A stretch of 64,000 nt of DNA from Psammoneis japonica. Taxonomy: Eukaryota. How positions within the stretch are numbered: the stretch's first letter is position 1; each line of letters begins with the position of its first letter. The position numbers and the translations under genes are program-made. Below the pieces are notes generated by a model, which made no database searches, was not told where the DNA came from, and saw only the letters and a program-made list of their open reading frames with translations. Shown piece after piece: positions 36,401-64,000 of the stretch. The stretch is taken from NCBI GenBank assembly GCA_008632985.1, contig QPGO01000029.1:1-64000 (forward strand). Direction: 5' to 3'.

Positions 36401-37210
36401 GTGGACCATCCCTTCCGTTTGGAACTGAGGCAAGTCCACCACCATGCCAAACTGCAATATCTTTTTGACAGTTCCCCGGTAAATTCCGTGCAGAGTTGGT
36501 CCAGACTCTTCGTTTGTGCGCATTCGCTTTGAAGCGGGATCGTCGCCAGCCTCCTTTTTCACCATCCACGCCGGAAGATTGGACACTCCCCTTCGCTGGC
36601 TTGTTTCGGTTGGAAGACGGCTAGATGGTTCCTCCTCTTTGGCACCCCAACGACTTTTTCGCTTCCTGTCATTTTCCACTTCTTGCTTGGAATGTTCGTA
36701 AAATTCTCCCTCTTCCAACTTTACAGAATGAGACAGATTCTTTACAGCCAATCCTGGAAAGCTCTGGCCCAACTCGGCTTTGCGCCCAGATGACTCAATG
36801 CTGCTCAAAAGCGGAGCCTCCTCATTGTCGCCAGATGATTTGACTTGCGCAAGCTTTTTCTGTCGCTTCTTTTCCAGACTTGCTTCCAATCGAGCCATGC
36901 GCGGACTCATGTCCAACACTAGATGCAGTATATGGGATACCACACTCAGCGGAATGTCGGCGGCACCATTCTCCGTCAAGGTTTTTCGCAACGACTGTGC
37001 AATTTCCACGTCCAAGTCACGCTTGCCACTCTTTAGAAAGGGCTTCAATTGTCCTTCGGCTAACGATATAACAAATTCGGCCAGAGTCTTGTCTTGAATT
37101 CCCAGGTGCTCTGCTAGCTCGGCGCTCACCTTGGTCACCAACGATAATGCCTCAAGTCGCTCGACTGCAGTCAGTGGTTTCGATTCTTTTTTCTTTGAGT
37201 CTTTTCCCAT
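33450..37210 (-). CDS. PRP22: Pre-mRNA splicing DEAH-box helicase PRP22/DHX8 with S1 domain; intron 35327-35415
   Basis: S1 domain ([18 protein letters not shown]), GETGSGKTTQ across the intron, [18 protein letters not shown]-terminal SWRLSKRKG. Confidence 0.97.
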
Positions 37211-37738
37211 GTTTACAGTGCTTTTTTTGAAACTTTCGTAAGGTTGTTGAGTTGTCAATTAGTAAATGCAATAGAGGTAAGTCGATGATAAAGAAGCTGA
37301 ATCCCATTGTCCCATTGAGGAGTGCTGGGTCGCGCGCGCGGATGGCTGGAGTGGTAGTCCCTGGTTTGGTCGACGTACAGACACACTGTATTGTTCATTC
37401 TTTAGACCTAAATATTTTGTATTTATTTTAACTACTACTACCGGTACAGCATGCGTTGAACGCACTTATAGGTATTAATACTTGAATAAAAGATTAAACA
37501 TATTCTATTTCTACAACTCTGAACATTTTCAATTTGATGCTCGCCTCCACTCACAATTTCGTTTCAAAGGCAAACATAAAGCCAACAGCGGTGCACCTCA
37601 ATGAAGCAAAGACGACCGAGCGCTTTCTTTATTTGTACATCGTTTACAGCGCAGCGCTCTCACACAGCTGACCAATCATCGACGAAGACCGCTGGGACTT
37701 GAGGGTGTCGCTTTGGTTTGTTGACCTTTCATCTGCCC

Positions 37739-39884: not shown

Positions 39885-40525
39885 CAGACTACCTTTGTGA
39901 AAATACATCCAATAATGGATTGCCCGTCAGCGTGGACGAGGGTACGTTGGACTCCAAGAAGCGCTGTCTTCAAATGGTGCACTCCGGTAAGGATGGTTTC
40001 ATTCAAAACATTGACTTTGAGCGATTGTTTCAACGAGAGCTTGCAGAAGACGACACTAACGACGCGGAGGCTACTACCGTCGACAAGGACGCAAAATCAC
40101 AGCCAAATATCGAGGAAGAGGAGCAATCTCTCTCGTCCTTTCTACAACAAGCACGACAAGAAGCCTTGCCGTTGGAGAGAGCCAGAGATTACGACCTGGA
40201 TTCGTTTGGAATCTCGATTGATAAGTCGACATTGTCCTTCTTCTTATCGGCCGGTTCCAGTTCAGTTGACGTGACTAGACATTGAAACATACATTAGAGT
40301 AAAGACGATGCGAGGTGTCATAGTTTCGTCTAATTTGCGTGCGGTGGATTCGGACAGCAACATTTTTCGTGCTTTGTTCCTTCCAGTATCCTAATCTAGA
40401 TTGATGTTGCATGACCGAATAAAAAGATGAGAGATTTCTGAGTGAAGCAAAAAGTAACCGTTCACAAAAGGAGTAGCTTCAGAATGCATCGAGCAAGCCA
40501 CAGAATTTTCATTTGCCGTCAAGAT

Positions 40526-40883
40526 TTACCAACTGGTCCCCCATTCACCACCACTGCCACTACCACTCCCGTCTGTTTGTTCAATCGTTTGATCCACAAC
40601 CAATTCTTGCTCATACATGTCCTCCGTGGGTTCCGAAGAAATCACCTCACCCAGAGCCTCATTAATCTTTTCCGTAACCTTGTGACAATTGTTTCCCCGA
40701 ATACCACGAACCGTCTCTTCCACACGACCGTCGGGGTAAATCTTGAATTCGATTTGCTCCACTCCACCATTGTCATTGTGTAGCTGCGTCGCGGTGCGTT
40801 GCGCAAAAGCGTGGGCGCAAAGGCATGTGCGGTCGAAATGCCAATGGCGAGGCAAATCATTGAGAAATCGGACGACGAAACAT
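40526..40883 (-). CDS. DUF2997 family small protein with plastid-type presequence (frameshifted)
   Basis: IEFKIYPDGRVEETVRGIRGNNCHKVTEKINEALGEVISSEPTEDMY; signal ICLAIGISTAHAFAP in adjacent frame. Confidence 0.75.
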
Positions 40884-41387
40884 GATGGATTTGTTTGGTG
40901 AGAGAGAAATTAAATACAAAGACAGTGATTGCTCGAATGCAGTAAGCTGAAATCCTCTGGCACGCGTCGAGCACACTTTCGAGGCAACAAAATGCCCTGT
41001 CGCAAAACAGAAGAAGCACTCGGCATCTGTTTTTCTCGGCGCCACAGTACATTCCGCGCCATTTTTCCTTCGTTCATTCAATGTCTATCGACATGAATAG
41101 TTTTATTAGTCTGACGTTGGAGCGAAAAATATGATTTAGTGCGTGGCTTGAAGTCGACGTCAGCATGACACGTCGTGAGTGTCATTGTATTTAGGGCACA
41201 AAACATCCATGGTTCAGACACACTCATAAACGCAACGCCACTCGTTTTTACGCGGGAAAAAACGAAGCGCAACGACCGCACCGAGTTCCATTGCTTTCTC
41301 ACGTTTTTGTTGTTTGCCTATTACATACATCTCTTCCTGTTTGTCATCTACCTGTTGTATCCATAAGACCTCATCCTTGGTGTAATC

Positions 41388-42810
41388 ATGGCGTCCATCA
41401 TGGCATCTTCACCGTCGGCCGTAGCAGCCGCGTCCAAGATGATGATTCGCCGTGCTGGAGCAAGGACTGCACTCTGCTCGGTGGGAACCTCATCTGTCTT
41501 GGTGGAGACGAGTAGGAGCACTACGGACTCTCAAGTTCGCTGCTTTTACGTGATGAGTAGCAATCGACAAGAAATATATCGAGTGGTACCGACTGTTCAA
41601 AGTAGTAGGAATTTTTCGTCTGGCGGCAAGCGTGATTTCTACGACGTGCTGGGCGTTCCTCGAGGTGCAGATAAAGCAACCATCAAGAAGGCCTATTTCA
41701 AGCTTGCAAAACAATACCACCCGGATCAAAACAAGGTAAGAAGTTAATATATGAATGGGTGATACGAAGGCTTATTCGGTCATCTAATCTGCTGTTTGTT
41801 TTGTAGGACGACGAAGCGGCGGCGGAGAAATTCAAAGAGTGCACAGAAGCATACGAGATACTTTCGGACGATAAGCAGCGGGAGCTTTACGATCAATTCG
41901 GACATGCCGGTGTGGATCCCAACAGTGGCTTTCAACAGGGTGGAAATCCCTTTCAGGGAGGTGGAAATCCGTTTCAGGGATTTGACTTTGGCGGCGGAAG
42001 CTTTCATTTTTCGTCCAGCGGAGGACCGGGTAGCGAAATTGATGCGGAGGAATTGTTTGATGCCTTTTTTGGCGGTGGTCGACGACGGCCGCGGGGACCA
42101 CGGCGTGGAGCGGATCTTCAAATGCATGTGCGCTTAAATTTTAAAGAAGCCGTCTTTGGGACGTCCAAGGATTTGCATTTGCGCTATCAAGTTGTCGATA
42201 GCAACACTGGCGAGGCGTCGGTGAAAGAGCGCGATGTTACTGTAGAGATACCAGCTGGTATTGAAAATGGAATGAACCTGCGATTGCAAGGGCAGGAGCA
42301 GAGGGTGATCCAGGAGCACCCAAAGGGAACTTGTTTGTGCAGGTGGTTGTCGATGACGATGAGTACTTTGTTCGTGATGGAGTTGATGTACACACCGAGG
42401 TGCCGATTAGTCTGACGCAGGCTGTGCTGGGCGGAACCGTGGATGTCAAAACGCTTACGGGTGAGGTGGAAATGAAAATTCCAAAGGGATGTCAGGTTGA
42501 GAGCAAGTTGATGCTTCGTGGAAAGGGTATAACGAGACTGCACGGCTCCACGAAAGGAAACCATATTGTTCACCTAAAGATTGAGATACCAAAGAAAATT
42601 ACAGAACGACAAGAGGAGTTGCTCCGGGAATTCGATGAAGAAGCAAAAGCCAGCGGATTAGGAATCTCTGGTCGGTTGTCCAAGGCGGCGAGCTCCGCGT
42701 TTGAAACAATCTTTGGCAAGAAACACAAAGAGAAGAAACAAAAAGAGAAAGAAGACGATCACCACGACGACGACGACGAGATAGAAAAGAAGCAGGCTGC
42801 ACAAGGATAG
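41388..42810 (+). CDS. dnaJ: Mitochondrial-type DnaJ/Hsp40 (J domain, G/F region, DnaJ C-terminal domain); intron 41735-41806, indel ~42295
   Basis: [30 protein letters not shown] repeats; [35 protein letters not shown]. Confidence 0.9.
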
Positions 42811-43148
42811 TAGGACAGAAGGTGCGCAGATTAGCAAGACTTTAAATGTAAAAATGAGACCAACCTTTTTGGATGATGCTTGTACGGTACGAGTACGTTG
42901 AGTGTGAGTCAGACACTCCTCTATCTTCACTTACTTCCTATACAGACGAGATTACGCACCGCATCGCAGAAGCAAATAGCATGAAGAAAGCGATCCGCCA
43001 ACTCTAGGCGCGTCTACGGTTTTACAAAAAAGCACAGGCTAGTTCATGCCTACTGACATGGCTAGATTGAAAACTTAGCTATGTGTATCTACCCGGCCCC
43101 ATCTTCCACAAGTCTACCAGTGACTTTCGAGAAACCCGAAAGCCTGGT

Positions 43149-44119
43149 CTACTTTCGTAACGATCGAATCACCCAAGGATGGTTCGGGATACTCTTGAGG
43201 GACATGCGCTTCCGAGGGTCTTTCTGAAGCAACCTTCTGATGAGATCTTGTGCGTCTTCAGCAACACCATAGGGGAATTTAAGGTCGACGCGGGAGATTC
43301 TTCTGTAAGTAGCCGTGTGCCCTTCAGCCTCGAATGGTGGGTTGCCTACAAGAAACTCATAAAGGAGTACCCCAAGACTCCAAACATCCACCTGTTCGTC
43401 GTGCTCCCGTCCTTCCACCATTTCGGGTGGCAAATAGTCGAGTGTTCCGCAGAGGGTGTTTCTGCGCGACGTTGGTGCATGAACCGACCACCCAAAGTCC
43501 GCAATCTTGATTTCTCCGTGGGGACCAATGAGAAGATTCTCTGGCTTGATGTCTCTATGAATAATATGCTTGGAGTGACAGTAGTCCAGTGCTCGAGACA
43601 AGTCGGCAATGTATTGTGCCGAGGTCTTTTCGCTGAAGCGTCCCCGGTTCGTGAGCTTCTTGTACAGTTCTCCTCCGGTGGATATTCGAGGATAAGATAG
43701 ATCCTCTTTGAATCAAAGAAGTATCCGTACATGCGTAGAATGTTGCGATGACGTAGATGGCTCTGAATTTCAATCTCCCGGCGAAGCTGATGCTCGACTC
43801 CAGCTTTGAGCAGTTGCGACTTTTCTAGGACCTTTATCGCAACAATAAACTTGGTACGCCTCTCTCGAGCGAGATACACAGATCCGAACTTTCCTCTTCC
43901 AAGAGGCTTACCAATCTCAAAGTCATTGAGGCACCAATGGTTGCCGTTCTGAGCGTTTTTCTTCTTCACAGCAGCCGCAGACGTGTCGCGGATGTTGGCC
44001 TCGCGTTGCGTAAGGGGGAGACCCTTACTGACAACAGGCAGCGTCCGCTTGATTCCCAACTTTATGTCATCGGTGTCATTCTCTTTGTTCCGTGTATCCG
44101 ACATGGTTGAAGCCATCAT
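43149..44119 (-). CDS. AURK: Aurora kinase (1-nt indel near 43680)
   Basis: [76 protein letters not shown]. Confidence 0.95.
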
Positions 44120-46805: not shown

Positions 46806-48125
46806 AGAAAGTTTGGAGTAACTCCGTACATGATTAGCGGTATTGTAGATATAAAAAGATTAGTTTGCTCTAGAGATATGGAATGTATCACATTATTTTC
46901 AATTTGCTCAAAACTGAGCAGCTCGTCCGTTGTGAAATGATGTTGTGTGTCGTGGACGACATGCAGTATGAGAATTGTTTGTCGTAACAGCACATTCGGT
47001 AGTAACAGGTTCACATGGCTGATTTTTATCTGCAGCGAAGTCTCGCAATTGCATTGGTAGTGCGAATGGGGAACCGGCACTCCAGATTCAAGATGAAAGA
47101 CGTGTAAACAATCCCTGGCGGATCTTGCGAATTGAAAAATGACTTGACAATGTCTTGGATATTTTAGAAACATTTAATAAGTATTCATTCATTAGTCTAA
47201 TATGAGTCATTATGACTTCCTTCTCAATAAGTACATCGAAAAAAGTCATCGCTGATTTCACAGAATTGAAAGTCGCAGCAAAGCACACACAGAACCGTCT
47301 TTGCGCAACGATTGTGTTTTCCTCAGGTAAGAACGACGTCGTTTCCCTGTATCGCTTTCATCTCAGTAGTTTCATGATTATTGTTGTAACATTCGTATTG
47401 TCGGCTGAGTTATGGGAAGCTGTCGGCTGTCGATGTATGGAACAGTGACTTCGGCGCACCGACGTGAGCTCAGCGCGCGTTGTTGATCGTACGGTCATTA
47501 CCGGTGGGCGGGTGGACTGTGGAGACATCCTCTTCTGTTCGTTCGTTGCGTTGTTCCTTTCTGCATTAGGGTTAACTCGGTTTACGTAGCTTTTCGTACA
47601 GTCCTACCTCGTTTTCATTTTATCCCAACAACAATGTTTGTTTTGGGGCGCGTTCTGATGTCTGAAAAGAGTGTGCTGCGTCCGTGTGACAGATTGACTT
47701 TCCAAAAATAATACTCGCATTCTTACGGCATCCGTTGTGAATCATGTTTGTTCTGATGTGAAAATTTGCATTCGTATTCAATTTTCTTCAACAGTGTTTA
47801 TCTTTCAAATGCTTATGTTTTATTCAGAGATGCTTTATGGTTCTGATATTGAGCCTTAAGATCATATAAAGCAAATATCCTCGTAATACTCATCAAGTGC
47901 ACCTCACTTTGTTTTCCCCTCATTGTGACCAGTACGATACCGCGTAGAATTCCACGACAGATCCCAAGAACGTCGACTGTACAGTACAAAACGGTACGTA
48001 GCACGTCGTAGGTCGTAGCGTAAGGGTCGAAGTGAAGGCGCTCGAACGAAAAGAAAAACATACCGTTCGTTGCCTTCGCAGGTCGCAGGGTGTTTTGGTT
48101 GGTGTTGAACTAACTCATTGTGACG

Positions 48126-51100
48126 ATGCACTCCCACCACAGAGGCGGCAGCAACCCGATGAGTTCCTCGCAGCAATTGCAGGAGTTGCAGAAAATGCAG
48201 CGCATGCAACAGCAAATGCAAGCGCAATTACAACAGGCTTCGAGTCAGCAGATGTTAGGATCAAACGGAGGCATGGGGGGTCTGCCAGGCTTATCGCAGA
48301 TGTCTTCCCAGATGGGCTTTGGGAATCAAGGATGGTCTGACCCCAGTAATCAGGGATCCGGAGGATCGCAGCAACATCGCAATTCCATGACAGGGATGAA
48401 CAGTTTTATGATGCAACAGAACAATCCCTCTCAGTCAATGTATTGGAACCCTATGCAGAACAAAGGCTCGGCAGGGTCATCGAACGATGGGGGCATGTCG
48501 AGCTCTTCTATGAAGAATGTTGGAGGAAGCATGATGGATACTTCTATGCAGGGGTTACAAAAAATGGGGGTCGGCGGAAATCAGCAGAATCATCAAATGA
48601 GAGGTCAGATGAACCAGCAAGGTTTTGGAGGAGGCTCCGGTCACGGGCAGGCCGATCTCTCAAACGCAATGTTAGCTTCAGCTAATGCTGTGCTAAATGC
48701 GGGGGGAAACAACGTTTCGGGGGGGATGGGGGGAAATGCTGGAATGATTTCATCAGCGAGCAATAGTAGCGCCCAGCTTCTTCTTCAGCAACAAAACATG
48801 ATTGAGGATCTCAAGCGTCAACTCGAACAACAGCAAAGAAAATCGGGAAGCTCGAATAGCAATGGCATTCCTCAGGCCAGTAGTATGGAGCGTCGCTCGT
48901 CTTCGGGTTCCACCCAGAGTAGTCTCCTTCCCGGTCAACAGCAAGCCTCGATGATGCAAAACCGTGGGTCTTCTTCTTCTTCTCAGATGCTTCAACAGAT
49001 GCGCTCCGGTATGATGCAAGACCAAAGTATGTCGGGTTTAACGGATATGCAGCAGCAACGTCGCAGATCGTCGTTGGGTTCTACAGACCAGAATATGTTC
49101 TCGCTAATGGGATCGCAGAACCCGGGACAACAGATGCGTCGAACAAGCAGCACGGGTGGAAATAGTTTCATGGGTAACGTCTTTGGTGGCCCGGGAGGGG
49201 GAATGGGCGGGACCGGCAATGGCGCAATGCTTGGTGCTAGTATGCCAGGAATGTCACAGCAGCTCCAGCTTTCGCAGATGGCGGGTCTCAGCAACGACCA
49301 GTTCCGGGCTCAACAGCAACTCCTCGGTACAACGGGTATGACTCCAATGAGCCAAGACATGAACGTCCTTAACAAAACAAAGCAACTTCTAATGGGACAA
49401 GACGATAAAAGCTCCGATTCCAAGATAAGTAAAGGAAAGGGTGTGGCAGGTAGTAAAGGCAAAGGCCGCCGAAAGAGTTCGTCAAGCAAATCGAAGAAAG
49501 GCTCCGACAAAGCTGGCGAATCTACCCAGGGTCAACAGTCGTACCTTGATGGTACCTTTGCTGGGGGGTGGCAGTCCAATGTTGACCTCCCTGATCGCCG
49601 ACAGATTATATTCAATATTGTCAAGGTTATCGAGCAGATGAGACCCGATGCGAACAAAATGTCACAAAAGTGAGTGTGTCTCTGTTCTGCTGTTTTCTAT
49701 TTGCGTCGAGTTGTTGGCGGTGGCTTTTTGCTCACTCATATCTCATTGTGCTCTATCAACTCAGGCTTCCAATGATGGCAAAGAGACTCGAGGAGCATCT
49801 TTACCGATCGGCTCAGACGAAAGAAGAATACTTGGACCAGTCGACGTTGAAAAAGCGACTCCAAATGATTGCTCATGGGTTGGAAGTTCATAGGTCAACA
49901 TCATCCGGCTCGAATAAGACGTCCTCGAAAGGCGTTCCTGACATAAAAACAAGCGACAAGCTCTCTTTGGATCAGAAAACACACGGAGACCACGAGTACA
50001 CGAGTGAACAGCAGCTGCAGCAGCAGCTTCAACAACTGGAACAGCTGCAGAAACTCCAAGAACAGCAGAAGTTGTCAGGAGGCCAAGCTATTAACCCGAT
50101 GGGCATGGTCCCTTCTCGTGGCGGCGCTAATCACGATGATTTCTTGAGACAGGGGGGTGTTCCCAATGTGTCCCTTGATAAGCTTCGTCCACAGGACAGC
50201 GTTCGAGACGGCCACGTGCAGTTTTCCGAGTCTCAAGCGCGAGGGGGGTCGAGCAATGCAGGGATTCTGAAGACTGACAGCGCGAAGTACCAAGATTCAA
50301 AGTCCGCCCAGAAAAAGAAAGTGATTCGACAACAGCAGCAAAGGCTTCTTTTGTTGAGGCACGCAAGTAAGTGCACCGCTGGTTCGTCTTGTACGACAAA
50401 GTACTGTGCACAGATGGTTTCTCTTTGGAAACATATGAAGAAATGCAGGGACAAAAAGTGTAAAACGCCTCACTGCTTAAGCAGTCGTTGTGTTCTCAAC
50501 CATTACCGCATATGCAAGGACGAAAAGAAGACGTCAACTTGTGAGGTTTGTGCTCCAGTCATGAAACAAATAAAGCTCCAAAATGAGCAGTCTGATCTAG
50601 AATCACCCCTGGATGTGTTTTCAAGAGATCCAACCGGAGATGCTCAACCCGAAGAAGAAACTCTATCAAGCTCAGCATCAACCCTTAAGCAAGATAACCT
50701 TACTGTCGCCGCCCAGCAAAAGCGTAAACAACTCGAGGAGCTTCAAGCAGCTCAGCAAAAGCTGCAACAGCAGCAACTTCTTTTAAAGCAGCTTCAACAG
50801 CAACAGGCGCAGCTACTGGAACAACAGAGACAGCTTCAGCAACAACAGCAACACGTGCTTCCACAGACGCCACAAGGCCAGCAATTGCAACAGCAAGAAA
50901 TGCTATTGCAGCAGCTACAGCAGCAGTTTCAGCAACAGCAATTACTTCTACAACAAGAAGTCCTTCGCAAGTCACAGAATTCCGAAAATAGCCAGATATC
51001 GAGCTCCGCCTCTCACGGCGGCGAATCTGGAAAGTCGAAGAAGCGAAGAGGGAGTAAGAAAGCCCTTGCAACCGGCAAAGGTAGTCGGAAGCGGTCGGGT

Positions 51101-54100
51101 AAAGGAAAAAGTTTGGGCGCCATGGACACGGCAGCATCGGAAGTCAATGAAGAAACTTCCACTCGCGACTCAGCAGAGTCATCGAAGAAGCGTTCTGCCG
51201 GCGGCGAAACGGACGAGTCTCAGCCAAAGCTCGTAAAGGCCGAGCCAGACGTCTTAGAAAAGCCGCAGGAAGGACAGTTGCCAGGTGGTGAGACCGCAGA
51301 GAACGCGTCACCTCAGAAGAAAGTCTTGCAACAGGGGACCGAGGAGCACAACACTGCTCTGATACCTTCAATGACGGTAGAAGCCATTGAACGACATTTG
51401 GAATCCCTCAACAATAGCTTGCACTTGACTCCGCGGACGATTGCTCAGAAATGCGCGCCTGTCCTCAACACTCTTCTCGAGGATCCTTTCGGATGGGTGT
51501 TTCGAGACCCCGTCGACCCAGTAGTACTTGGATTGCCGGATTATTTTGACGTTGTCAAACACCCGATGCATCTTGCCCTTGTCGCGGAAAGGCTCGAAAT
51601 TTGTGCCTACAAAGACATGGAATCGTTTGCCAGTGATACGAAGCTTGTATTTGAAAACGCTATCTTGTATAATGGGGATGACAGTGAAGTTGGTTCGATG
51701 GCGCAGAGTATGCTCAATCGCTTTGAGAAGGAATTCGGCGCTGTACTGAAAGGTATGCTCATCGTTGTTCCCTGACTGCTTATTGTGTTATACTCTATTC
51801 TAAGTTCTCGTCTTGTTGCGTGGAAAGCTATTGAAGCTGAGGGGCAAATTCTGAAGAAGAAAGAAGATTCATGCTCGCTGTGTGGCTCTCAACGTCGCCT
51901 TTTCGAGCCAACAGTTCTCTACTGTAGCGGCGCTTGTGGGATGCAAAAGATTCGTCGCAACGCGTCATATTACACGGATCAATTGAAGCTCAATCACTGG
52001 TGCAGCCCATGTTTTGCCTTGCTGGAAGATGAGGATCCGATCGTACTTGATGATGGGAAGGAGATTCGAAAGAGTGAGCTACAAAAGCTGAAGAATGATG
52101 CGCTACCAGAGGAAGCCTGGGTTCAGTGCGATGACTGTCACAGTTGGGTTCACCAGATTTGTGCTCTTTTCAACGGACGAAAGAACAAACTGGATGCTAC
52201 GTACACGTGCCCAAAGTGTCACATCGGAAAAGTTGAGCAAGGGGAAGGAGTCAAGCCGGAGCAGATCATGAAATGTGCCAGGGATTTACCGCATTGCAAA
52301 ATGAGTTTGGCCATTGAAGAAGGACTGCATGCTGAATTGGAGAGAGCTTACAAAGCGCGGGCATTGGAGATGGGAGTCAATGTTGACGAGGTTGAAAAGG
52401 CGGATGGTCTAACAGTAAGAGTTGTTTCAAATATGGAGAAAACTCATTATGTTCGAGAAGAGGTGAGTGGTGGTAGTCGATGTCGTTAGCTTTGCTCCCC
52501 CCCACCCCCTACCAGCGACTCATTGCTTCTTTCCGCGCTCGCACTCTTTGTATGCTCATAGATGTGTGCTAGATACGCTAAGAGTGGCTGCCCATCGGAA
52601 TTTCCTTTGCGATCGAAGTGCATCGCATTGTTTCAGACTGTATGTGGAGTCGATACGCTCCTATTCGGCCTCTACGTGTACGAGTATGGACAGTCATGTC
52701 CTGCTCCAAACCGAAGGCGCGTATACATATCATACCTAGATTCTGTGAACTATTTCGAGCCCAAAGCCTACAGAACAATTACGTACCACGCCATCCTTAT
52801 CGAATACCTTCGATATGTGAAAGCCCGAGGATTCCATTCAGCGCACATTTGGAGTTGCCCGCCTTCGCCTGGTGATGATTACATCTTTTACTCTCATCCT
52901 TCGGAACAGTTGATTCCTCGTGACGAGATGCTTCGCGCGTGGTACCACAGTATGCTGGACAAGGCCAAAGGCAAGGGCATCGTTTTACAGACCCGCACCC
53001 TGTACGACGAATATTTCAAGAATGGAGGAATGGATGCTACGGTGGGACCTGCAATTGATCCCACTAGCCTTCCCTATTTCGAAGGTGACTACATTCCCGG
53101 AGAGATAGAAAACATTATCAAAGAACTCAACGAACAAGAAGACGAGAAAAGGAAGGACGGAGCTGCCAACAAAAAGACCGGCATGAAGGTAGGCACAAGG
53201 TCAAACCCGGGAGAACTCATCAGTTTTGGCCAAGATAAGGTGATGATGAAGCTCGCCCAAGCAATAAGTAATATGCGACAGAATTTCATGGTCGTTCACC
53301 TACGCTCCAGGGCGTTCGCAGCTGCCGTCGAAAAAGGCGAGGATGTATCTAACTGGATAGACGAGGCAGACGAAGATGTGCAGACCCCAAGTAAGAAAAT
53401 TAGGGCAAGTGACGATGAAGCTACAACCCCTGCCGTTGCTGACGAAAACAAAAGCGTTGAAAAGGCTGGCATGAACGGAGTTGGAGCCGTCTCTCACGCC
53501 TCCAAAGATGCCGACAACAAAGGCCTTGGTACAGCAGCCGTGCAGAGAGAAGGGGAAGAATTCGCTTTAGGTGATGTAGGTTTGAGCAACGACGTGGCTG
53601 GTATGTCCGAGGATGGAAAAGAAACGGATCGATCATCCGCTGAAGCTCCTGAAGCCACCAACATCCAAGATGGCGAGCCCGTCGTGAAAAGTGACCCTGT
53701 GATCGAGAATGGCGACCCGAGGTTTGATGCAACGTCCGGAGCGATCAAGGACGAGCCCCTCGATGTAAAAATGGAGGATGTCACCAAATGCAACCCTGCA
53801 CGTATGCCACTTGCTGGTTCTACCGCAGACGGTGAGGCCTTGGATGCCCTCAAGGTCGACGCCCGAGGCACGCCGCTGGAATCGGATTCCGCTTTGCAAA
53901 CCGATATGAATGACGACGGGATGTCTCAGAAGATTCCCCCCAACGGCGATGGCGCAAGAATTGTCAAAAAGGAAACCGAAGACGCAAGAGACGGAGGCGC
54001 AGATGAACCCAGTCCTGGTACCAGCGACGATCCACTCCCGGGTGCTGGGGCCGAAGAGAAAGCTTCTGAGAAGCTGTCTGCTGAAGCGGATGACACAGCC

Positions 54101-54982
54101 ATGGATCTAGAGCCCGTCGACGTGGCTAGCATTGGAAACATGCTTCCAGAACAAGAATTTACGCCCCCATCAACTGAAAATAGGGAATCAATGTCTTCGA
54201 AGCGCAGCTTTGACGAAATCGAATCGACAGATCCTGTTAAACGCGAGCCTGTTGCTTCCACAGTGGACGAAGACGAGCCGATCGAAAACGAGATGTTTGA
54301 ATCTCGGCAGCAGTTCTTGAACTATTGCCAGACAAATCATTTCCAGTTCGATGAACTGCGGCGTGCCAAGCACACAACCATGATGATTCTGTTCCAGCTC
54401 CACAACCCAAATGCACCCAAGTTTTTGCAGCAGTGCGGTTCTTGCTACCGCGAAATCACGCATGGCATACGTTATCACTGTACCAGTTGCTCGAATTTCG
54501 ATCTTTGCCAGGATTGCTATGAACCTGTTATTACAGGCTTGTGGGCTCAGAGAGACGCGCGTTTCGCTCATGACAAGAGCCACTCGTTTACTCCCATCAA
54601 CATGGAGGCACCTCTCGACACTCAAAAGAGCAGGGAAGAGCGTGCTCAAGCCCTCAAGGTGCATCTTGAGCTTTTGGCGCATGCCGGTAGCTGCGAGGGT
54701 CCTCCAGATTGCACGCTAAAGAACTGTGAGAAAATGAAGAGTATGTTTGAGCACGTAAAGTCATGTGAAGTCACGTACAAGAAGGGCTGCAAGAAGTGTG
54801 CTAGGCTTTTGTCGTTGATAACAATGCACGCTCGCCAGTGTACGACACGCGGCTCGTGTCCAATTCCGTTCTGCGATAGGACCAGGGAGAGAAACCGGCG
54901 TCTGCGCCAGCAACAACAGCAAATGGACGACAGACGGCGAAACGCTCAGAACGAACTTTATCGTGAAAGGGGTTCCGCGTAG
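48126..54982 (+). CDS. CBP/p300-type histone acetyltransferase: Q/M/G-rich N-terminus, KIX-like, TAZ, bromodomain, PHD, KAT11 HAT, ZZ, TAZ2; introns 49670-49764, 51753-51827, 52463-52561
   Basis: LPMMAKRLEEHLYRSA; QQQRLLLLRHASKC; WVFRDPVDPVVLGLPDYFDVVKHPM; WVQCDDCHSWVHQICALF; RRVYISYLDSV; IWSCPPSPGDDYIF; LPYFEGDY; HFQFDELRRAKHTT; CSNFDLC. Confidence 0.96.
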
Positions 54983-55562
54983 GACGGTTGTTCGGGTGGG
55001 AATAAATATATTTTAATAATGCTGCTTAGAGTTAAGAAGATGTTGGTGCTTATCCTCTACAGGAGAACAAAATGTCATCGGTGCCTCAATGGAAAAGTTT
55101 CACGGTCTCACCTTTTGCCCACGACGAGCCAAAGCGCACTATTTTGTCCGAAATATTTTACTATGCTCCCGTTGCAATCATCTCTTTCAGGACACTGTGA
55201 CGGGTGCTGGACAACCAATGTCACTTAGGCTCTCTACTCTCTCTAGTAGCTAGCTCTAGCTCTAGAGAGTAGAGCACTACTGTAGAGCAAAAAAGTGTGC
55301 GACCAGTTCCGATTACCTCGTCCCGCCCGCCCGAAAACTGACCATTTGTGTCTGTCTGTCTCACCGGGTGTGGTTCATCCATCGGACACCAAAAAGATCG
55401 CTGGCAACCTCCGTCATTCAACATCTTGAATGGCAGCATGGATGGAAACAATCCCCATGCAAAAATGCATGGGAAAGTGTGCGTGTGCAAAAATGTTGAA
55501 CCAGCAAGTCAATGTCACCAAAAGGGAATCCCACAAGGCTTCCTGTGCTGCTGGCTGCACTT

Positions 55563-55800
55563 GCCACCCCGCAAAAGAACTCTGGAACAACAAATTTGTG
55601 TGGAAACAGTGCCAGGGCCTCAGCGGAAATGCCAAAAAAGTCTGGAACATGGAACATCAAGAAACTGCATGGGATCCATCTTAGATTCAGTGCCAGGGAG
55701 GTCAAAAATCACAAAATTCTGGACTTTTTTTGCATTTCTGCTGGGGCCCTGGCACTGCTTCTGCGCAAATTTGTCATTCCAGAATTTTTTGAATGGTGGC
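55563..55800. repeat. Imperfect inverted repeat (~75-85-bp arms, 55563-55647 / 55717-55800)
   Basis: ctctggaacaacaaatttgtgtggaaacagtgccagggcctcagcggaaatgccaaaaaagtctggaa vs reverse complement ttctggaatgacaaatttgcgcagaagcagtgccagggccccagcagaaatgcaaaaaaagtccagaa. Confidence 0.85.
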
Positions 55801-56276
55801 TTGCCCTGACCACTTTGGCAGCCATGGTTTGCCCAGAAGTTGTTGACAAACTTCAAACTTGCAATGTGAAACAGGTGCCTTCTGACGCCACAAAGCAATT
55901 TGTGCAAAACAGATGGTTCGCTCTAAAGCCCAAAGAGTGAGAGGTGGGCTGAAAGGCAAGTGAGATCGGCGACGATCCACTCCAAATGCAATGAGTCACC
56001 AAGTCCACCATGCAAAGATCTTCACCATCTTCTTTTCAACACACCCAGGTTCTCAATTTTCCTGTGACCCAGATGCTCCAGCAAAAAAAAGCAAGAGAAG
56101 CATGCAAGGAGCGACACAGACAATCTCGCCATGTGGGAGTCCACACTGTGCTCCATGCTGCTCTGTCACTCTTTTGTTTCCCATCCTCTTCTCATGGCCA
56201 GCGCACTTCCAGCAGCCAGCTCAGTGTGATCTCTGGTTTCTCTGTTGGCAGCTGCACAAGCTGCGCACATCTGCTC

Positions 56277-56721
56277 TGCAACACACAGCTGCCAACAAGA
56301 GTCAATGCATCACGGCGACGTGTCACAGCCTTTAAATGTCACAAAGGGCGTGACAAAATGACCTTTTGTCTGCATGCATGCTGCACTGTGAATTCACAGC
56401 GGAGTGGTTCATCGCAACCATCAGGCAGGAGGCCAGGGGTTCGAAACCCTGAGTGGGAGTTGTCTGCAGCAACGTTGATCACTGTCGAACGCGCAAAACT
56501 CTGTGCAGTTCTGCACGTTCCTTCGCACGTGCCCACACTGTTCCGCCAAAACCGTGCAGTGTCAGTGCACGTTAGCAAAGAGCCGCATGGACGCGTGACA
56601 CATGGGGAGGAGTGCAACACACAGCTGCTGATGAGAGTTGATGCATCACAGCGACGTGTTGCAGCCTTTAAATGTCACAAAGGGCGTGACAAAATGACCT
56701 TTTGTCTGCGTGCATGCTGCA
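56277..56721 (+). repeat. 109-bp direct repeat (56277-56385 and 56613-56721)
   Basis: Ungapped match differing at six YR dinucleotides only. Confidence 0.92.
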
Positions 56722-58888
56722 GCTCACTTCAAGCCAGGACAGCTTGTTTCTTTCCCAACATCATGGCTCAAGTCTCTGCCAGCTTTGTTTTGAGTGTGCA
56801 CAGCAGGTGCAAAAAACATCCACAGCTCTTCACTGACTTCTGACAGGAAGACAGCAACAGCTGGTGGCATGCCCATCAGCAAGTGGCGATGACCCAGCTG
56901 CAAACCCCACACTCTGCCACCATTCTCATTCACCTTGATGCACTTCAGTGACAAGAAGCATGGTGCCTGACAAGCAGTGGCAGGAGCCGCAATCATGACA
57001 GTGCTCCTTTTTTCTCTTTTGCTGCAATCTGACCCACTGTGCTGGCAAAAGCAGAGCTGTGCTTGGCAAAAAGCCACTGTTTTGCAACTGTCAGTGCAGT
57101 TGGCACAGCTGCTTTGTGGTGTGAGGTGGCAGCATTTCTGTCAGTGGCGGCATGCTGTCTCTCATCTCATGGGGGTCCAGACCATCATTTCCCCCAAAGT
57201 GCCAATTTTTAGAAAGTGCGGGCAGCATCTAAAAATGTTGAATGGAAAGCTGACTTTCATCCATTGAGGAAGAATGTTTGGGAGTGAATTGTCTTTTGTG
57301 GTTGCACACATTTTGCATTTTGTGAATGACTGCTGCCAAAAGTGCTTGCTTGGAGAGCGTGCAGTGCCACAGCCCACACATGCCAAGGGGCAGCAGCACC
57401 TGCCTGCGCATGAAACAGCTGCTGTTTTCTTCTGTGTTTGAAAGTGCAGCCAGGTGCACACATCCTCATGGTGCCACTGCATGTTGTGTCCAGAAAGTTC
57501 TCCAAATGAGAAACATGTCAGCGGTGATGTGTGCCCAGTTTTCTGGGGGTTTTGCTGCACAGTGTGTGAGAGAGACACCTTTTTTGGTCAAACTTCAAAC
57601 AATGTGGCACATTTTTGGGTGTGCAACAGTTTGGTTTTGTGGGCACATGGAAATGGTGGCCTTGTCTTGCCTGTGCCCAGGTTGCTGCTTTTGATCTTTC
57701 AGAAGTGGTGTCTTTGGATCATGAGAAAAGTCTTTTTCTTTTTTTGTGGTGCACCAGCAGGGTTTCTGATGCATTGATGACAATGCGCTCAAATGGCAAC
57801 TCATGGTGGAGTCAACACATGCTTGGCTTTCTCAGCATTGAAGAGGGAATTTTGGTGTCAGGGGCAGAGCAATGTCAACAACACCAGAGTGGCTGACAGC
57901 GCTGACTGGGACAGCAACTTGGCTCAAAAACCAACATGTCTCTTGAAAAAGAGGCATTGACAGCTGGAGGAAATTGCTCAAAAGTGCACAATCTTGCCCC
58001 AACCAACAGAGCTGCACTTCAATGCAGCTCTGTTGTGCTGTGATTTGACCTTTGTCAAGGGCACAAATGGAGTCCTCAATCTTTGGGGTTTCAACAACAA
58101 CGCACACAATGCCCCCAAGTGGCAAAGAGGCAATCATCCATTGAATTGGCTGCTGCAAATGACAAGTGTTGTTGAGATGCTGCCTTTGACTCTGTCCTTG
58201 AGCCCTCACTTCTTGAGAGCTCAGTTGGAGCTGTCATCTGTCTTAAAGTGATTTTGTTCCAAAAGCAATTTTGAACTCACATCAACAAAACAGCCAGAAG
58301 TTGAATCTGCGGTGCTGCATCCTGACATTCCAGTCTGCCAAGGTTTTGAAAAGCAAGGTCCAGACCAAGATTCCAAGCTTGGAACTTGCAACAAGTGTTG
58401 CCATTGTGGGTGCTGAGGGCATTGGAAGTGAACCTTGTGCCACAAAAGATGGAGTGCAAACACCTCCATTTTTTGAAATCTTGTTCAGCATTGGGTGTCA
58501 TTCATCACAGGAAAAAAAGAAAGGGAACAATGGAGCACACTAAAAGTGGCAAAGAAAAGGACCATGTTCTCACAGCTAAAAGCCACATTGTTTGTTGTTG
58601 TGGCAATGGCAAATCACACAAGTTGCCACACCGGTGCCATTTTCTTTTTGACCAATCTGAAACACAAGTTCACAGAAATCATGGCAACACCAATTTCTGT
58701 GGTCTGGATCTGCTGCAGTTGCCACTGCAGCTTCATCACAGAAAAAACCTGTTATTGTCCCAATCTCTGCCAGCCACACTTCTTTCCAAGTTTCCAAGAG
58801 CCAAACTTGTCTGTTTTTGTGTGTGTGAATTCTTGCAAAAATGATCAAAGGCATCTCAAAGCATTCTTCATTCCTCATTGATGCAAGC

Positions 58889-59040
58889 CTGATTGCAGCA
58901 ATCAGGGCATTGCTCCAGAAACCAGTGAGCTTCTTTTTTCCAACAGCTTCCACCCATCCTCAGCTGATTGCTGCAATCAGGGCATGGCTCCAGAAGCCAG
59001 CAAGTTTTTCTTTTTCCAACAGTTTCCATTCCTCCTCAGC
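58889..59040 (+). repeat. ~76-bp tandem duplication
   Basis: ctgattgcWgcaatcagggcatKgctccagaaRccagYRag...ttccaacagYttcca...tcctcagc twice. Confidence 0.8.
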
Positions 59041-60475
59041 ACATGCTTCAACACAAAGCACCCCAACTCAAATGAGGAAGTTCACTGTTCTTCAAAAGTG
59101 GGGAGCCACAAGAGACACAACAACACAAGCCATTCACTGGTGAAGCCATGTGGACTTCCTCAAGATCCAACTCCCACACTTGCCTGCACTCAGTGTGGCT
59201 GTCATGAAGCTTCAAATGCTTCTCAGTCAGGTCCTTCTTTTGTCTTTTCTTTTTGTTGTTGGTGGAGCACTTGGATGAGCTGCAGGCAACAATCCTCAAG
59301 TCCAAGGAATGCACCAACTCCACACTGCACTTTGAGTTAGTTTGTGACAAAATTTGTGCTGAAAAGTCTGCAGAGCTGACTGTTTTGCTGCAGCATCCCC
59401 AACATGAACACCAGTTGCTTTTCCTGCCCTCATTTGTGCAGTTGCCCAAGTCTTCAACCAAGGATGACAGCCAAAAATGACCAAACACCAATGGAAGATG
59501 CACAACACAGCAGCCTTTCTGCATTGTCCAGGGTTGCTTGCCGCACATGCTTCCATTGATGATGCAGGCCAGACTCTGTTTTGGGGAAACACTCTGGGTT
59601 CTCCAAGAATTTTAAGAATTTTGATGCTGATGCCACATGCTGCTGAGCACAACTTTTCAGCACTGGTGGTTCCATGGGGGTTTTGGGTGCTGCAGCCATC
59701 CTCCATGCTGTCAAAGGGCTTAACTTGAGCAATGTTGCTGATGCCAGGAAGAGTGTTGTTTCAGAGATGGAAAGAGAGTGCCCACCCACTTGTGTTTTGG
59801 ATGCTGTTTGGCTCGATTTGGGGTGACAACACAAGATCCAGTGGGCTGTAAAATTGGTGCAATTGATGTGCTGGCAAACACAGACTTGGACTACATTGTC
59901 ACTTCAATTCTGAGAAACAACATCACACAAAGGTTGCAAAACAATGGAGAGAGCAGGAAAGCCAGAAGCAGCTTGGGTGACTGTTTGCAAGACAAAAACA
60001 ACATGATGAATGATTTGGGTGTCAAATGAAAGCTCAGGATGGGGTGGTTGATGGAGGCAGAGTGCAACAAGAACAAAGTCAGGGAATGAAAAAGGCTCCC
60101 AACATCAATTCATGCAGCAGAGAAGCTTGGTGAAAAGATGCCTCCTCATGGTTTTCAAGTCTGTTGGGGGATGCAGTGGATGAGTGCTTGGTTGAAAAAG
60201 CAGAGCATGCAGTGTGTTTGTGGTTCTGGTGTGCACCAAGCCAACTCCATCATTGCCAAGCCAGTGCAAGACAAAATGATGCCAGTGTCATCATTGCAAA
60301 ATGACCCTGATTTTTCACATGTTTTTTGATGTCACTTTGCACACATCTGCGTGGTCATTTCCCTCATCTGGGAGTCATTGTAAATGTTCAATCTCAGATG
60401 GAAATGGCAATTCATCTGCACGGCCACCAGTGAGTTCCTGCCAGAAAAATTGTGACCACAACTTATTCCAATTTT

Positions 60476-63400
60476 TCAAACTTTTAGGATGGGATCAATT
60501 TTCCCTCCATCTTCTTTCCGTTTGTCAAAATTTTGACTTGCTCCATCCACTGCTTGGTCTTGTGCACCCACTCTTTCACAGCTCTGGTCACATGCAGCAG
60601 ATCTTGCTGACTTGCCACAAGTTTCTGGCATGATTTCTGCACAAATCTGTGATGAAATCTTCATCCAAAAAACTCATTTCTCTCTCACAAAACCCCGGTT
60701 TTGCTTTTTTGTTGCACCCAGCTTTCTTGTCTCCTTTCAACCTTCTGTCCTGCCATGGCTGCCAATGTCCTTGCTGCAATTGAGCATGGCAAAACTTCCC
60801 CACCAAGCATTTCTTGCAGTTGGGTGCCAAGGATGAGCTTTTGCTCAACCAAACAAAGCTCCTTGCACTCTGTCACGACACCAGCTCTGCCATCACTGAC
60901 TTTGTGCATGGTCAATTTGACCAGCTCCTCATGTTCCACAAAGGTTGCAAAATCATTCCAGTTGCAAAACCTGCTCCCTTCATCAATGGTGCTGATGAAG
61001 TCAAGTGCTCATGCAGCTTCTTTGATGCTGTTGGTGAAGTCACTCCCATGTCAGGAACTCACCAACATTTTGGGGGACACTTTGTGTCATCAGCGCTCCA
61101 AGCTGATGCAGCAACGCACAGCTCACCTCATGCTGAGACTCCTCCAGATGACATTAAGTGCCCTCCACAGCCCAACAGTGCCAACAATCCTCTGTCCTTT
61201 CAACGCCTCAACTTTGGAATCCTGCCATGGCTGAAGAACAAGCAGTCCTCATGCTGCTCCCCCCATGGCTTTTCCTCTCCCTCCAGGCCACTCCTTCTCT
61301 CCGGAATTCATTCCTGGAAATGATTGTTCCAATCTTGCTGCCAACTTTCACCAGATGTGTGGCAGAAGGCTGTTGGTTGCATCCAACAGCACAATGGAGG
61401 CTGATTGCTTGATCAAGGTGGACCTCTTTTTGATCAAGCTGCTGATGGTCTCCAAGAGTTGTTGATGATTTCATGAATGTCAATGTTTGCATCTTTGGTG
61501 ACAATGATTTCCAGGTGGTTGCACCCTTTTTGCTGGACAGTTGTGCAAGTGTCCAAAACACCATCAGGACATTGTCTGACTTGACCTGGCAGACTTTGGG
61601 GTCCACGGACCACTGACAATGCAAACAGAGGGATCTCAGAGGCAGGTGCAGCTGCAGCTGCTCAAGGCCCCACTGCCATCAATGTTGATGCCCCTGAGAC
61701 CAAGAAGGACAAGGATCTTAGGAAGAGGGCTGCTGACATTCAGTCTTGGCACTCTTTGTCCTTTTGCCACAAGACAGCAGGCTCCAATGCCATTGCTCTT
61801 GGTGCACTCAAGCCAGTTTTCATTGACACTCTGCAGGAATCAAACAAGACCAAAAGGAGGGCTCACTCTCTCTGTGAGATTGTCATTGTGGCTCTCAACA
61901 GCAGGAAGTTGATGGATGTCTTTGATCAAGTTGTTGCCTTTTGCTCTGCTTGTGCAAACAAGGCTTTTGCTGATGGCATCTGCTGCTTTTGTCTTGCTGA
62001 CCAGCCTCCAAATGCTTTGGTCACAATGCATCTGAGTGACATCAACATCATGAACTTCCTCACTCACCACATGGATGACACAGAGCATTCCCAGAAGGTC
62101 AAAGAAGGCCAAGAGATCTCCAAGCATTCTCTTGCAATGGACTTAAGAGTGCAGCTGCTGAGCCAATCAAGAAATCCACCCTCTGTGACAAGGGTGGTTG
62201 TGCCCGTGACTCCTCAGATGTTGTTTTGTCAGCTCTCAGCAACTTCAGGCTCGTCTTCAATGCCCTCATCAAGAACTTTGATGAAACAGCTCTCTGGCAG
62301 CAGCTTCTCTGCTGTGGCCATGTTGCTTTTGGCAAGAGTGGCAAGCAGTTGATTGCAAATGATGGCAACACTTGTGAAATTGCTGTGAATGTGCTCAATG
62401 ACATTCAAAACATCATCCACACCTTCTTCCAACTTGGAGGCATCCCAAACTGCCACAAGGTCATTTGTGATTTGCAGGATGTCAGTGTCCAGGCTTTGGA
62501 CATCTCCAAGTGCTTGACCAATCAGTCAATTCAGGATCTGGAGATCAACATCAGTCATGGTCCTCCCAGAACTTTTGGCAGCAAGTGCCTGCTCTGTCAG
62601 CAGCTTGCTGCAGAGTTGAGTGCCACTTTGACCTCTGGCAAGCATTTGGCTGAATGCCCTGGCTGCAGCTTCTCTGTCCAAGAAGCCGGGCTCTCCCTTG
62701 TTGTTGTTGGACATGGAGCTGTGCAAGAAGATGGGTCTCCCAGTTGTCTCTGGAAACCCTGATCAGCTTTCTTTCATCCCCACTGTGGCTGAGAAAGGTG
62801 CAGATTCAAGCACTGAAAAGCATCTGTGTCCTGTTTCATGATGCATGGGTTCCATTGCAGCTGTCCCAAGTGCAGCAAGCCTCACATTGCAAACTTGCAT
62901 GGCCTTCCCAAAGCAAAACATGATGAGTTGATCAAGTTTGTCAACAATGCTGGCAACCTTTCCTTTGCCAAGGGAAAAGGCCCTGGTGGTGCATCTGCTT
63001 GGTTTTGTCTTGTGACAAACTGGCAAATCTGTTGTTTGACAATGTCATCTTACACTGAAATTCATTCTAGTTTTTGTTGACCTTGCTCCACCGGCTTGCA
63101 TTGTTGATTGGGCTGTTGTGAACTCAGATGAAACTGTGGGTGTGGAATTGCTGGATGGTGTTGAAACATGAGCTGAGGATGATGTTGCACCTCCACTTCC
63201 TGCTGGGGACAAGCAGAGGCTGTCTGAATCCATGGGTTTGGTGCCTCAAGATGTTCCGGATGCTGCACCTGTCTCTTTGGATGAAGTCAAAGAGTTCCAC
63301 CCATTTTTGGCACCATGAACTTGTTGAGTGACACTTGCCTCCTCCCCTGTCCCAAACATCAACAACAGCTCTTTAAGAAAGGCGAGCATGAAGAACAATT

Positions 63401-64000
63401 CTGTCAGATTGGCTCCAGTCACAACTGGACCAACCCTTTGGCAAGGATGACATTTGTCAGTTGTTTGTGCATCTGAAGCTGTTTTTTGTCATGCACTGCT
63501 GCCCCTGTGGAAGTCTGGTTTTCTGCAGGATGTTGCTGGTGCAAAGAGCATTCTTCTCTCCAGGTTGTTGGTTGTGTTGCCACCTGGGATGACCTGTGCT
63601 GTGTGGTGTCAGATGCTTGGCACCCAAACAACCTCCTCCGGGAGTGCAGAGATGTTGACTTCAACACCCTGCAAGGACACCCTTTGGAGTGGGAGAAAAA
63701 AAGGGCCTCAATGGGGACCACATGATGCAAAAAACCACAGCAGCTCTTCTCCATTTTGATGGAGACATGGCATTGTGAGTGGGGTGGGTCAGGGGCCTGC
63801 ACATTGCTGTGCACTTCAAGGTCAACAAGATCATGTCGTTTTTGGAAGGCAAAGTTGATCTTGCTGTCATTTCAACTGTTGGGTGCATCTGCCAAAATGG
63901 TGTTCCGGCTTGTTGTGATGGACACAATGATGTGCAAGAAGAGAACTTCCAAGCTTGTCTTCAGCATGGAAACTGTCTCTCCATTGAGATTGGACCAGAG
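60476..64000 (-). pseudogene. Fossil long coding sequence of unknown function, broken mostly by TGA stops
   Basis: Same-frame ORFs 63045-63233, 62763-63026, 62526-62726 and 62229-62456 each end at TGA; no Tyr, excess His/Cys. Confidence 0.6.

Follow-up and report, generated by a model that had tools for sequence, protein, structure and literature searches.

What could strip nearly every TA dinucleotide from thousands of consecutive bases of a chromosome while the genes beside them stay ordinary? This question is raised by a 64,000-nt stretch of the genome of the diatom Psammoneis japonica (contig QPGO01000029.1 of assembly GCA_008632985.1, positions 1 to 64,000 of the forward strand), here called the window. 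An earlier note, made from the letters alone, had pointed to its last 8.6 kb or so as a block that had lost TA and CG and gained TG and CA. Three such blocks, or islands, are described here. The best explanation, to which we assign a probability of about 0.7, is that two transition processes confined to the islands rewrote non-genic, partly repetitive and presumably silenced diatom DNA in place. The first would be a fast A:T-to-G:C hypermutation at TpA, turning 5'-TAY-3' into 5'-TGY-3' (Y, pyrimidine; R, purine) on both strands about equally and removing ~95% of TA. The second would be a slower decay of CpG to TpG or CpA, as expected from deamination of 5-methylcytosine (5mC) in CG-methylated diatom repeats. 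The phenomenon itself is already in print for a rhizarian, the chlorarachniophyte Bigelowiella natans (bioRxiv 10.64898/2026.01.13.699255), so the earlier note's remark that no description was known is out of date. New here are its occurrence in a diatom, the apparent TAY motif and the saturated end state.

Three islands depleted of TA

The islands were detected by scanning for stretches of 300 bp that contain no more than two TAs, and were characterized by observed/expected (o/e) dinucleotide ratios computed in 1-kb windows across the 64,000 nt. No strand is assigned to any of them. Island C (55315-64000) is erased of both TA and CG and extends past the end of the window. Island A (24553-27124) is a TA-erased domain lying between host genes, and island B (31104-32464) is a smaller and less complete domain depleted of TA and CG. 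Between 55279 and 64000 there are 27 TAs against 593.0 expected (25 of them within 55315-64000) and 80 CGs against 498.4, together with 979 TGs against 549 and 960 CAs against 538; the o/e ratios of island C are 0.04 for TA, 1.78 for TG and 1.79 for CA. Island A, counted over 24551-27124, holds 9 TAs where 177.7 are expected and 79 CGs where 144.8 are expected, and island B holds 13 TAs (89.0 expected) and 27 CGs (80.9 expected), with TG at 1.58 and CA at 1.73. No sequence is common to two or more of the islands, despite the same signature in all three.

The 1-kb windows from 56001 to 64000 range from 0.02 to 0.07 for TA, 0.04 to 0.45 for CG, 1.70 to 1.82 for TG and 1.73 to 2.08 for CA, and TA is wholly absent from 57230 to 58244. 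Outside the islands the ratios are 0.31-0.88 for TA and about 0.7-1.4 for CG, leaving out two windows that fall on a gap of Ns. The boundaries are sharp on a scale of tens of bases: TAs are frequent as far as 55314 and then absent until 55682, and at island A they are frequent as far as 24552 and return from 27125. Across 446 background 1-kb windows, the TA ratio averages 0.57 (standard deviation 0.11) and never falls below 0.24, and the lowest TA count among 1000 mononucleotide shuffles of 55315-64000 is 534, against 25 observed. The depletion is thus confirmed as real and far beyond chance. Both the long block and the two further bounded blocks that had been noticed at 24.6-27.1 and 31.2-32.4 kb are borne out by these counts, as is the normal use of TA and CG in the neighboring genes (TA o/e about 0.45-0.8, CG about 1). 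The start of the long block, placed earlier at 55400, has to be moved, since TA loss begins at about 55315.

The same loss is visible in translation. In six frames, 55315-64000 contains 0.04% Tyr against 2.3% in the background, 5.0% His against 3.3%, 6.2% Cys against 3.7% and 6.4% Gln against 4.0%, and TGA makes up 437 of its 481 stops, compared with 625 of 1197 in the background; this agrees with what had been read from the open reading frames (ORFs). The long ORFs of island C exist because TAA and TAG have been lost, and are a by-product rather than genes.

A further stretch of about 600 bp at 21791-22389 has 4 TAs against 32.9 expected, mildly raised TG and CA, and a normal CG count (42 against 39.0). 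It was considered as a fourth island and rejected on account of its normal CG and its position inside a coding ORF (21522-22802, with a Cir_N domain); its low TA probably reflects codon or amino-acid composition.

A signature of this kind might be produced by the sequencing itself, through miscalls at modified bases, poor polishing of long reads in repeats, or the mis-joining of a contaminant. This can be judged from a public DNA run (X1), which may be the source sample of the assembly and so is not fully independent. X1 contains 0.78 of the sampled words of the island C block and is the only DNA run with the block among the runs listed; no RNA run containing it is listed. Its contigs reproduce island C at the depth of the flanking gene (57.7-62.2 across 57.1-60.3 kb and 57.7-66 for the block overall, against 56.8 for the gene), are ~99.4% identical to the window within the island, and equally lack TA and CG, which excludes gross error. 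The two sequences differ at 40 positions in about 7.0 kb of island (0.57%) and at 1 position in 7,269 gene bases, which makes differences about 40-fold denser in the island, and X1 has 12 one- or two-base insertions relative to the window in island C, mostly beside runs of the same base, whereas 7.3 kb of the flanking gene shows no such insertion. These insertions suggest that the consensus of the window is less well polished within island C and probably contains some errors there. Among the 36 single-copy substitutions listed, 31 are transitions; the listed differences include nine where the window has CG and X1 has TG or CA, three of the reverse, three where the window has TG or CA and X1 has TA, and one pairing CA with TG. 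The 40 differences would fit fast ongoing change, although the insertions show that errors in the window's consensus are probable as well. As the cause of the islands, an artefact is scarcely credible: besides the agreement with X1 contigs, which are assembled from k-mers, miscalling should produce the same reading at a given site every time, whereas TG, CA, CG and TA are all found at the same site of the tandem array described below, and three separate islands occur among host genes within a single sequence.

Direction and target of the change

The islands appear to have been rewritten rather than replaced. Per kb of island C, the deficits of TA (35.7) and CG (48.1) add up to 83.8, against an excess of TG and CA of 80.8; the corresponding figures are 61.8 and 67.3 in island A, and 66.2 and 64.0 in island B. 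Pyrimidine-purine (YR) steps number 234.5 per kb in island C and 237.5 in the background, which is taken from the same window, so that their total is conserved within about 1.3%. The fractions of A, C, G and T are also close to background, with a GC content of 47.8% inside and about 47.8% outside. The match of YR total and composition therefore points to host-type DNA rewritten by transitions. Among the sixteen dinucleotides, TA, CG, TG and CA shift by far the most, and TG and CA nearly double at constant base composition because both processes feed them. The dinucleotide GC rises and AT falls, both moderately, as would be expected from conversion of the TA in ATA/TAT and TAC/GTA.

The direction of the change can be followed in a tandem array of five ~280-bp units (24537-25930, plus strand) lying across the left boundary of island A. 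TA is retained at five of five sites in the edge unit and at 1/6, 2/6, 0/6 and 0/6 in the inner ones. Over six sites in five units (29 cells), TA is read 8 times, TG 12 times, CA 6 times and CG 3 times, and one site can read TG, CA or CG in different units. Because both TG and CA occur at the same site in different units, TA is the most parsimonious ancestor, and among single-step routes only an ancestral TA would explain these readings. The four full inner units have 16 variable columns, of which 15 are transitions and 12 fall within such YR steps. Some of the CGs in the array would then have arisen from TA by double hits.

A second line of evidence comes from a high-copy repeat, one copy of which occupies 56010-57077 (strand not assigned) with a summed X1 depth of 28,000-44,000, against about 57 for single-copy sequence. 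At 56531, 56567 and 56576 the window reads TG, TG and CA where other copies read TA, the share of depth with TA being 15,803/24,744 (64%), 24,628/45,846 (54%) and 10,143/24,353 (42%); among the listed variants of this repeat that occur in several contigs, all three set TG or CA in the window against TA elsewhere. Because other copies carry TA, the repeat family is not TA-free by nature. Two other repeat pairs, both within island C, are ambiguous. A 109-nt duplication (56277-56385 and 56613-56721, spaced by 336 bp) differs at six sites, four of which form adjacent CA/TG doubles, and three of the ten differing sites between the arms of a hairpin at the island edge are also adjacent CA/TG double differences. 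Such doubles would imply an ancestral TA or CG, equally well either way; the duplication had been taken as proof of ancestral TA, and this was withdrawn.

These observations bear on whether a local mutator is needed at all. The islands might instead be viral or horizontally acquired DNA that was already poor in TA and CG, or DNA purged by selection against the target site of a nuclease or transposon. The hypermutated regions of B. natans are, in the available part of the preprint, viral insertions, and neither a family match in the islands nor a homologue of ORF 61585-62349 was found, as would suit a foreign origin. Foreign DNA would not be expected to share base composition and non-YR dinucleotides with the host or to conserve its YR total, the edge unit of the array has TA where inner units lack it, other repeat copies have TA, and the three islands carry the same signature on no common sequence. 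Selection would have to account for a 96% loss, with edges sharp to tens of bases, in DNA without recognizable coding sequence. An explanation without a local mutator is for these reasons given a very small chance.

Rewriting in place by a mutator is better matched by the observations, and it appears to involve two processes rather than one. The CG ratio is 1.00 outside the islands, 0.55 in island A, 0.33 in island B and 0.16 in island C, and it varies at constant TA loss: the left part of island A (25001-26000) has TA at 0.03 and CG at 0.77, and the right part (26001-27000) has TA at 0.03 and CG at 0.16. In island C, 56277-56900 has TA at 0.09 and CG at 0.58, and 57600-64000 has TA at 0.04 and CG at 0.07. 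The loss of CG described in the earlier note is only partial at 55315-56900 (0.24-0.58) and at 24.6-26 kb (0.77). TA loss is separable from CG loss and can occur with little of it; either TA is lost much faster than CG, or the parts that retain CG are unmethylated. The proposal of separate CG-to-TG/CA and TA-to-TG/CA processes remains the best explanation of the mass balance, the array, the repeat copies and the stretch at 25-26 kb.

Both strands are affected. Island C contains 976 TGs and 958 CAs, interspersed at random (runs z = -1.0), and no strand-coherent tracts were found in it; the similar counts and random order indicate that both strands were changed and that no long one-strand tracts are left. 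This matters for a mechanism at the RNA level, in which an ADAR-like enzyme would hyperedit A to I in double-stranded retroelement RNA, the changes entering the genome when that RNA is reverse-transcribed and inserted again, or in which the DNA strand of RNA:DNA hybrids would be edited. The very stable hairpin at the edge of island C would suit such a mechanism, and ADARs disfavor G as the 5' neighbor (PMC8586724, available in part). The same source has ADAR accepting A, C or U at -1, yet the islands keep AA (o/e 1.32) and CA (1.79). Changes fall equally on both strands without strand-coherent clusters, and array units differ in place with the edge unit spared, which fits change on the chromosome and not a re-inserted copy. 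The depth of island C is mostly that of single-copy DNA, and no reverse transcriptase or other domain was found by Pfam in any frame of any island. Editing at the RNA level is accordingly regarded as very improbable.

The survivors and products of the TpA process point to a preferred context. TAY on one strand is RTA on the other, so that RTAR and YTAY are half-sites, with the motif on one strand only. Among the 40 TAs that survive in the three islands, 25 are in YTAR (17.6% in the background) and none in RTAY (30% in the background). Per kb, survival in island C against background is 0/11.6 for RTAY, 0.7/20.2 (3.5%) for half-sites and 2.2/6.8 (32%) for YTAR. Half-sites in island C lost 19.5 TAs and 25.3 CGs per kb, and their products rose by 29.7 for YTGY+RCAR and by 12.8 for RTGR+YCAY. 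An even split of the CG loss gives 12.65 to each class and leaves about 17 and about 0, respectively, for TA. As the rise of RTGR+YCAY equals the CG share only, nearly all half-site TAs would have changed on the TAY strand. The remaining two product classes match their sources (+19.9 against 21.4, and +18.4 against 17.5).

Broken down by flank, the share of change on the TAY strand is about 100%, 80%, 92% and 100%, and a non-coding background gives the same motif result. The product asymmetry is 13.5-31.3 per kb across all six island segments, against a background mean of 6.8 (standard deviation 10, n = 20). Mutated half-site cells of the array are TG in five of five cases, as the rule requires, and six of seven TA-related differences between the window and X1 also obey it. 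The target is thus put forward, from sequence comparison, as 5'-TAY-3' to TGY, which is the same as 5'-RTA-3' to RCA.

The candidate agent and related systems

The closest counterpart is found in mutation-accumulation lines of B. natans, where integrated viral DNA undergoes TpA to TpG/CpA hypermutation (bioRxiv 10.64898/2026.01.13.699255, cited throughout from its available part). In two viral regions, 230 of 231 mutations are A-to-G or T-to-C, the GC-biased ones all on TpA. The rate is ~6e-7 per site per generation, about 1000-fold higher than elsewhere in the genome, and 11 of 15 lines are affected. In addition, 124 clusters of windows poor in TpA and rich in CpA+TpG occur in this genome (bioRxiv 10.64898/2026.01.13.699255).

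The process proposed here would be of the same kind, judging by the resemblance. In both cases A:T becomes G:C at TpA and both TG and CA are produced (here according to the mass balance, the array and the repeat copies), the change is confined to bounded regions with ordinary flanks, and low TpA with high CpA+TpG remains as a long-term footprint, in B. natans also in clusters with transposon-type domains. There are also differences. The host is a chlorarachniophyte (Rhizaria) in one case and a diatom in the other; mutation was seen directly in B. natans, whereas here it is deduced from sequence; and the targets there are recognizably viral, whereas no recognizable domain is found in the diatom islands. 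Active regions of B. natans keep much TpA (Rho 0.45 in a giant-virus region), against an o/e of 0.04 in the diatom. The available text of the preprint gives neither a +1 preference nor CpG loss (its figures and supplements may hold a motif), in contrast to the TAY context and coupled CpG decay seen here. No literature on TpA loss or A:T-to-G:C hypermutation in diatoms was found; the part of the B. natans preprint available makes no mention of diatoms, and the terms 'TpA', 'hotspot' and 'transposable' do not occur in the accessible text of a mutation-accumulation study of Phaeodactylum tricornutum (PMC6604790).

The CpG decay has a ready cause by analogy, as diatom transposons are CG-methylated by DNMT5a (PMC9998398, in the part available). 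The loss of CG, symmetric to TG and CA and limited to the islands, is of the form that 5mC decay would leave. Such decay cannot remove TA, and two sub-regions have lost much less of their CG than of their TA.

The TpA process would be enzymatic, with chromatin or small RNA directing it toward foreign or repeated DNA. Our tentative candidate for the enzyme, held at somewhat less than even odds, is an adenine deaminase of the TadA/ADAT type acting on DNA. Among NA dinucleotides only TA is depleted, which fits T at -1 and is offered as a working resemblance to TadA/ADAT only. U at -1 is a shared mark of TadA/ADAT editing, with UACG as the bacterial motif (PMC10027721, in part). The strict T or U 5' of the A is common to both, and bacterial TadA has a pyrimidine at +1, as in TAY. 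The B. natans preprint likewise proposes an ADAT2 homologue as a candidate, citing action of ADAT2 on DNA in amphioxus and Trypanosoma (bioRxiv 10.64898/2026.01.13.699255). The two differ in substrate, which is chromosomal DNA in the diatom and RNA loops for the known enzymes. TadA/ADAT enzymes act on single-stranded RNA loops and not on chromosomal duplex DNA. ADAR and APOBEC are further editing enzymes known from defense.

Several points weigh against this account. The direction of change is drawn from six array sites, three sites of a repeat family and bookkeeping within the same window, and three array cells are CG, which requires a second hit outside TpA. The doubles of the 109-nt duplication, if they derive from TA, break the TAY rule in two of four half-site outcomes. 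The TAY reading presupposes that CG decay at half-sites is strand-symmetric, and one background 2-kb window equals the islands in asymmetry (maximum 40 per kb). YTAR, too, lost about two thirds of its TA, so that the preference is relative, roughly at least 5-fold. ADAT-type mRNA editing in fungi favors A or G at +1, the opposite of TAY (PMC10027721, in part), and the available text of the B. natans preprint makes no mention of CpG (bioRxiv 10.64898/2026.01.13.699255). Finally, TA is palindromic, and sequence cannot tell an attacked A from an attacked T.

This last point leaves room for the same TpA hypermutation with thymine as the base attacked. A JBP/TET-type dioxygenase or another enzyme would modify T in 5'-RTA-3' within silent chromatin, and the resulting 5-hydroxymethyl- or 5-formyl-uracil would mispair with G, or be repaired with error, changing T to C. 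All results on the array, the balance and the context can be read with equal ease as RTA to RCA. Dinoflagellate DNA is known to carry hypermodified thymine, preferentially at TpA, and 5-formyluracil is a known promoter of A:T-to-G:C changes. No result points to thymine modification in diatoms, and the only study of this signature prefers an adenine deaminase, in its available part by argument alone. An attack on thymine is considered unlikely.

Diatoms and chlorarachniophytes might share an old chromatin-guided DNA adenine editor that serves genome defense, acting at TAY in invading or repeated DNA alongside CG methylation, and that is widespread in the stramenopiles, alveolates and rhizarians (SAR) instead of being peculiar to a single alga; we regard this as speculative and rather doubtful.

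Fungal repeat-induced point mutation (RIP) converts C to T, chiefly at CpA, so that TpA is created and the GC content falls. It requires duplicated sequence and a premeiotic stage. To our knowledge, this C-to-T system was before 2026 the only one known as a dinucleotide-removing defense mutator. As in RIP, which strikes repeated or foreign DNA, dinucleotide-specific transitions ruin bounded stretches in the diatom and spare the genes, and stops and amino acids shift. The direction is the opposite, as the islands lose TpA (o/e 0.04, with CA at 1.79) at unchanged GC, and most of island C is single copy, though repeated DNA, in the array and the high-copy family, carries the change too. The B. 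natans preprint, which describes RIP as C to T, also compares its TpA process with it (bioRxiv 10.64898/2026.01.13.699255, in part).

A mutator able to rid selected chromosomal regions of a single dinucleotide would be a rare form of genome defense, and the saturated outcome seen in the diatom suggests that the process is not the oddity of a single species. The long-term outcome is a TA ratio of 0.04, a sequence without Tyr codons and stops that are almost only TGA. Enzyme and guide are constrained in turn: the target would be TAY/RTA and not any TA, both strands are changed without runs, and the process may precede or outrun CpG decay. For annotation, the islands yield long false ORFs that gene callers may report, and they blur repeat families, leaving repeats under-annotated; a simple scan for stretches in which TA is low and TG+CA high would reveal them in any assembly. 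Should the agent be a natural DNA adenine editor, it would be of interest to genome engineers.

Content and surroundings of the islands

The islands are probably silenced, non-genic DNA. The process had been described as repeat-targeted, which is supported only in part: repeats are affected in the tandem array, in the high-copy stretch at 56010-57077 (the only one in island C) and at 60.3-63 kb, present 2-3 times in X1, whereas 57.1-60.3 kb is at single-copy depth when counted at 90% likeness or more. A transposon origin is not borne out, as no Pfam domain was recognized in any frame of any island. A search of 91 of the 107 ORFs of at least 70 aa (E <= 0.1) gave nothing above the cut-off and only sub-threshold noise, and six-frame read-through with X at stops (E <= 0.05) gave no family in island C and only matches below the cut-off in islands A and B. 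No homologue of ORF 61585-62349 was found among 5,749 candidates. Rfam gave no family at the gathering score in the whole window and two weak, chance-level matches at E <= 1 in island C, and ARAGORN called no tRNA.

Within the high-copy repeat, 56400-56450 has by eye a tRNA-like A-box/B-box look, which we take as an impression only of something resembling a short interspersed nuclear element (SINE), called by neither ARAGORN nor Rfam. The summed depth of this repeat in X1 corresponds to hundreds of copies. A 226-nt contig from an RNA-like run (X2) matches 56392-56617 in the same repeat. An exact 27-nt pattern from the repeat had no match in metagenome contigs.

The left edge of island C carries a long inverted repeat (55572-55795, plus strand) with 74-nt arms that are 82% complementary. 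Its predicted RNA fold reaches -122.3 kcal/mol (z = -12.0 against 200 shuffles), with a stem of more than 80 pairs. This hairpin could be a source of double-stranded or small RNA, or an element like a miniature inverted-repeat transposable element (MITE), and is a lead rather than a finding. A MIR408-like Rfam match at the hairpin is weak (24.5 bits against a gathering score of 64). No convincing terminal inverted repeats were seen at the ends of islands A and B. Island B includes a (CT)n microsatellite of about 15 units at 31503-31532.

The genes around the islands encode a PPR protein, a DEAH-box helicase, a CBP/p300-type acetyltransferase ending at 54982, and an MgtC-family protein (28632-29300, between islands A and B). 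Island C begins about 330 bp past the CBP/p300-like stop codon. The identity of the host as a diatom, and not as Bigelowiella, is supported by the helicase: the best named relatives of its DHX8 exon are Fragilaria crotonensis (91%), Rhizosolenia (89%) and Seminavis robusta (85%), compared with about 80% or less for pelagophytes and oomycetes. For the flanking CBP-like gene, relatives were found at two loci, neither with downstream DNA.

At about 4400-6200 there is a scaffold gap of 1,754 Ns, which gives rise to spurious ORFs in the list for that region. The CBP/p300-type gene (48114-54982) is spread over several long ORFs and encodes TAZ, bromodomain, HAT_KAT11, ZZ and TAZ domains. Run X2, from the same sample as X1, behaves like RNA here, as one of its contigs is spliced and skips three GT..AG introns of this gene, at 49669-49765, 51747-51823 and 52460-52560 (95, 75 and 99 nt).

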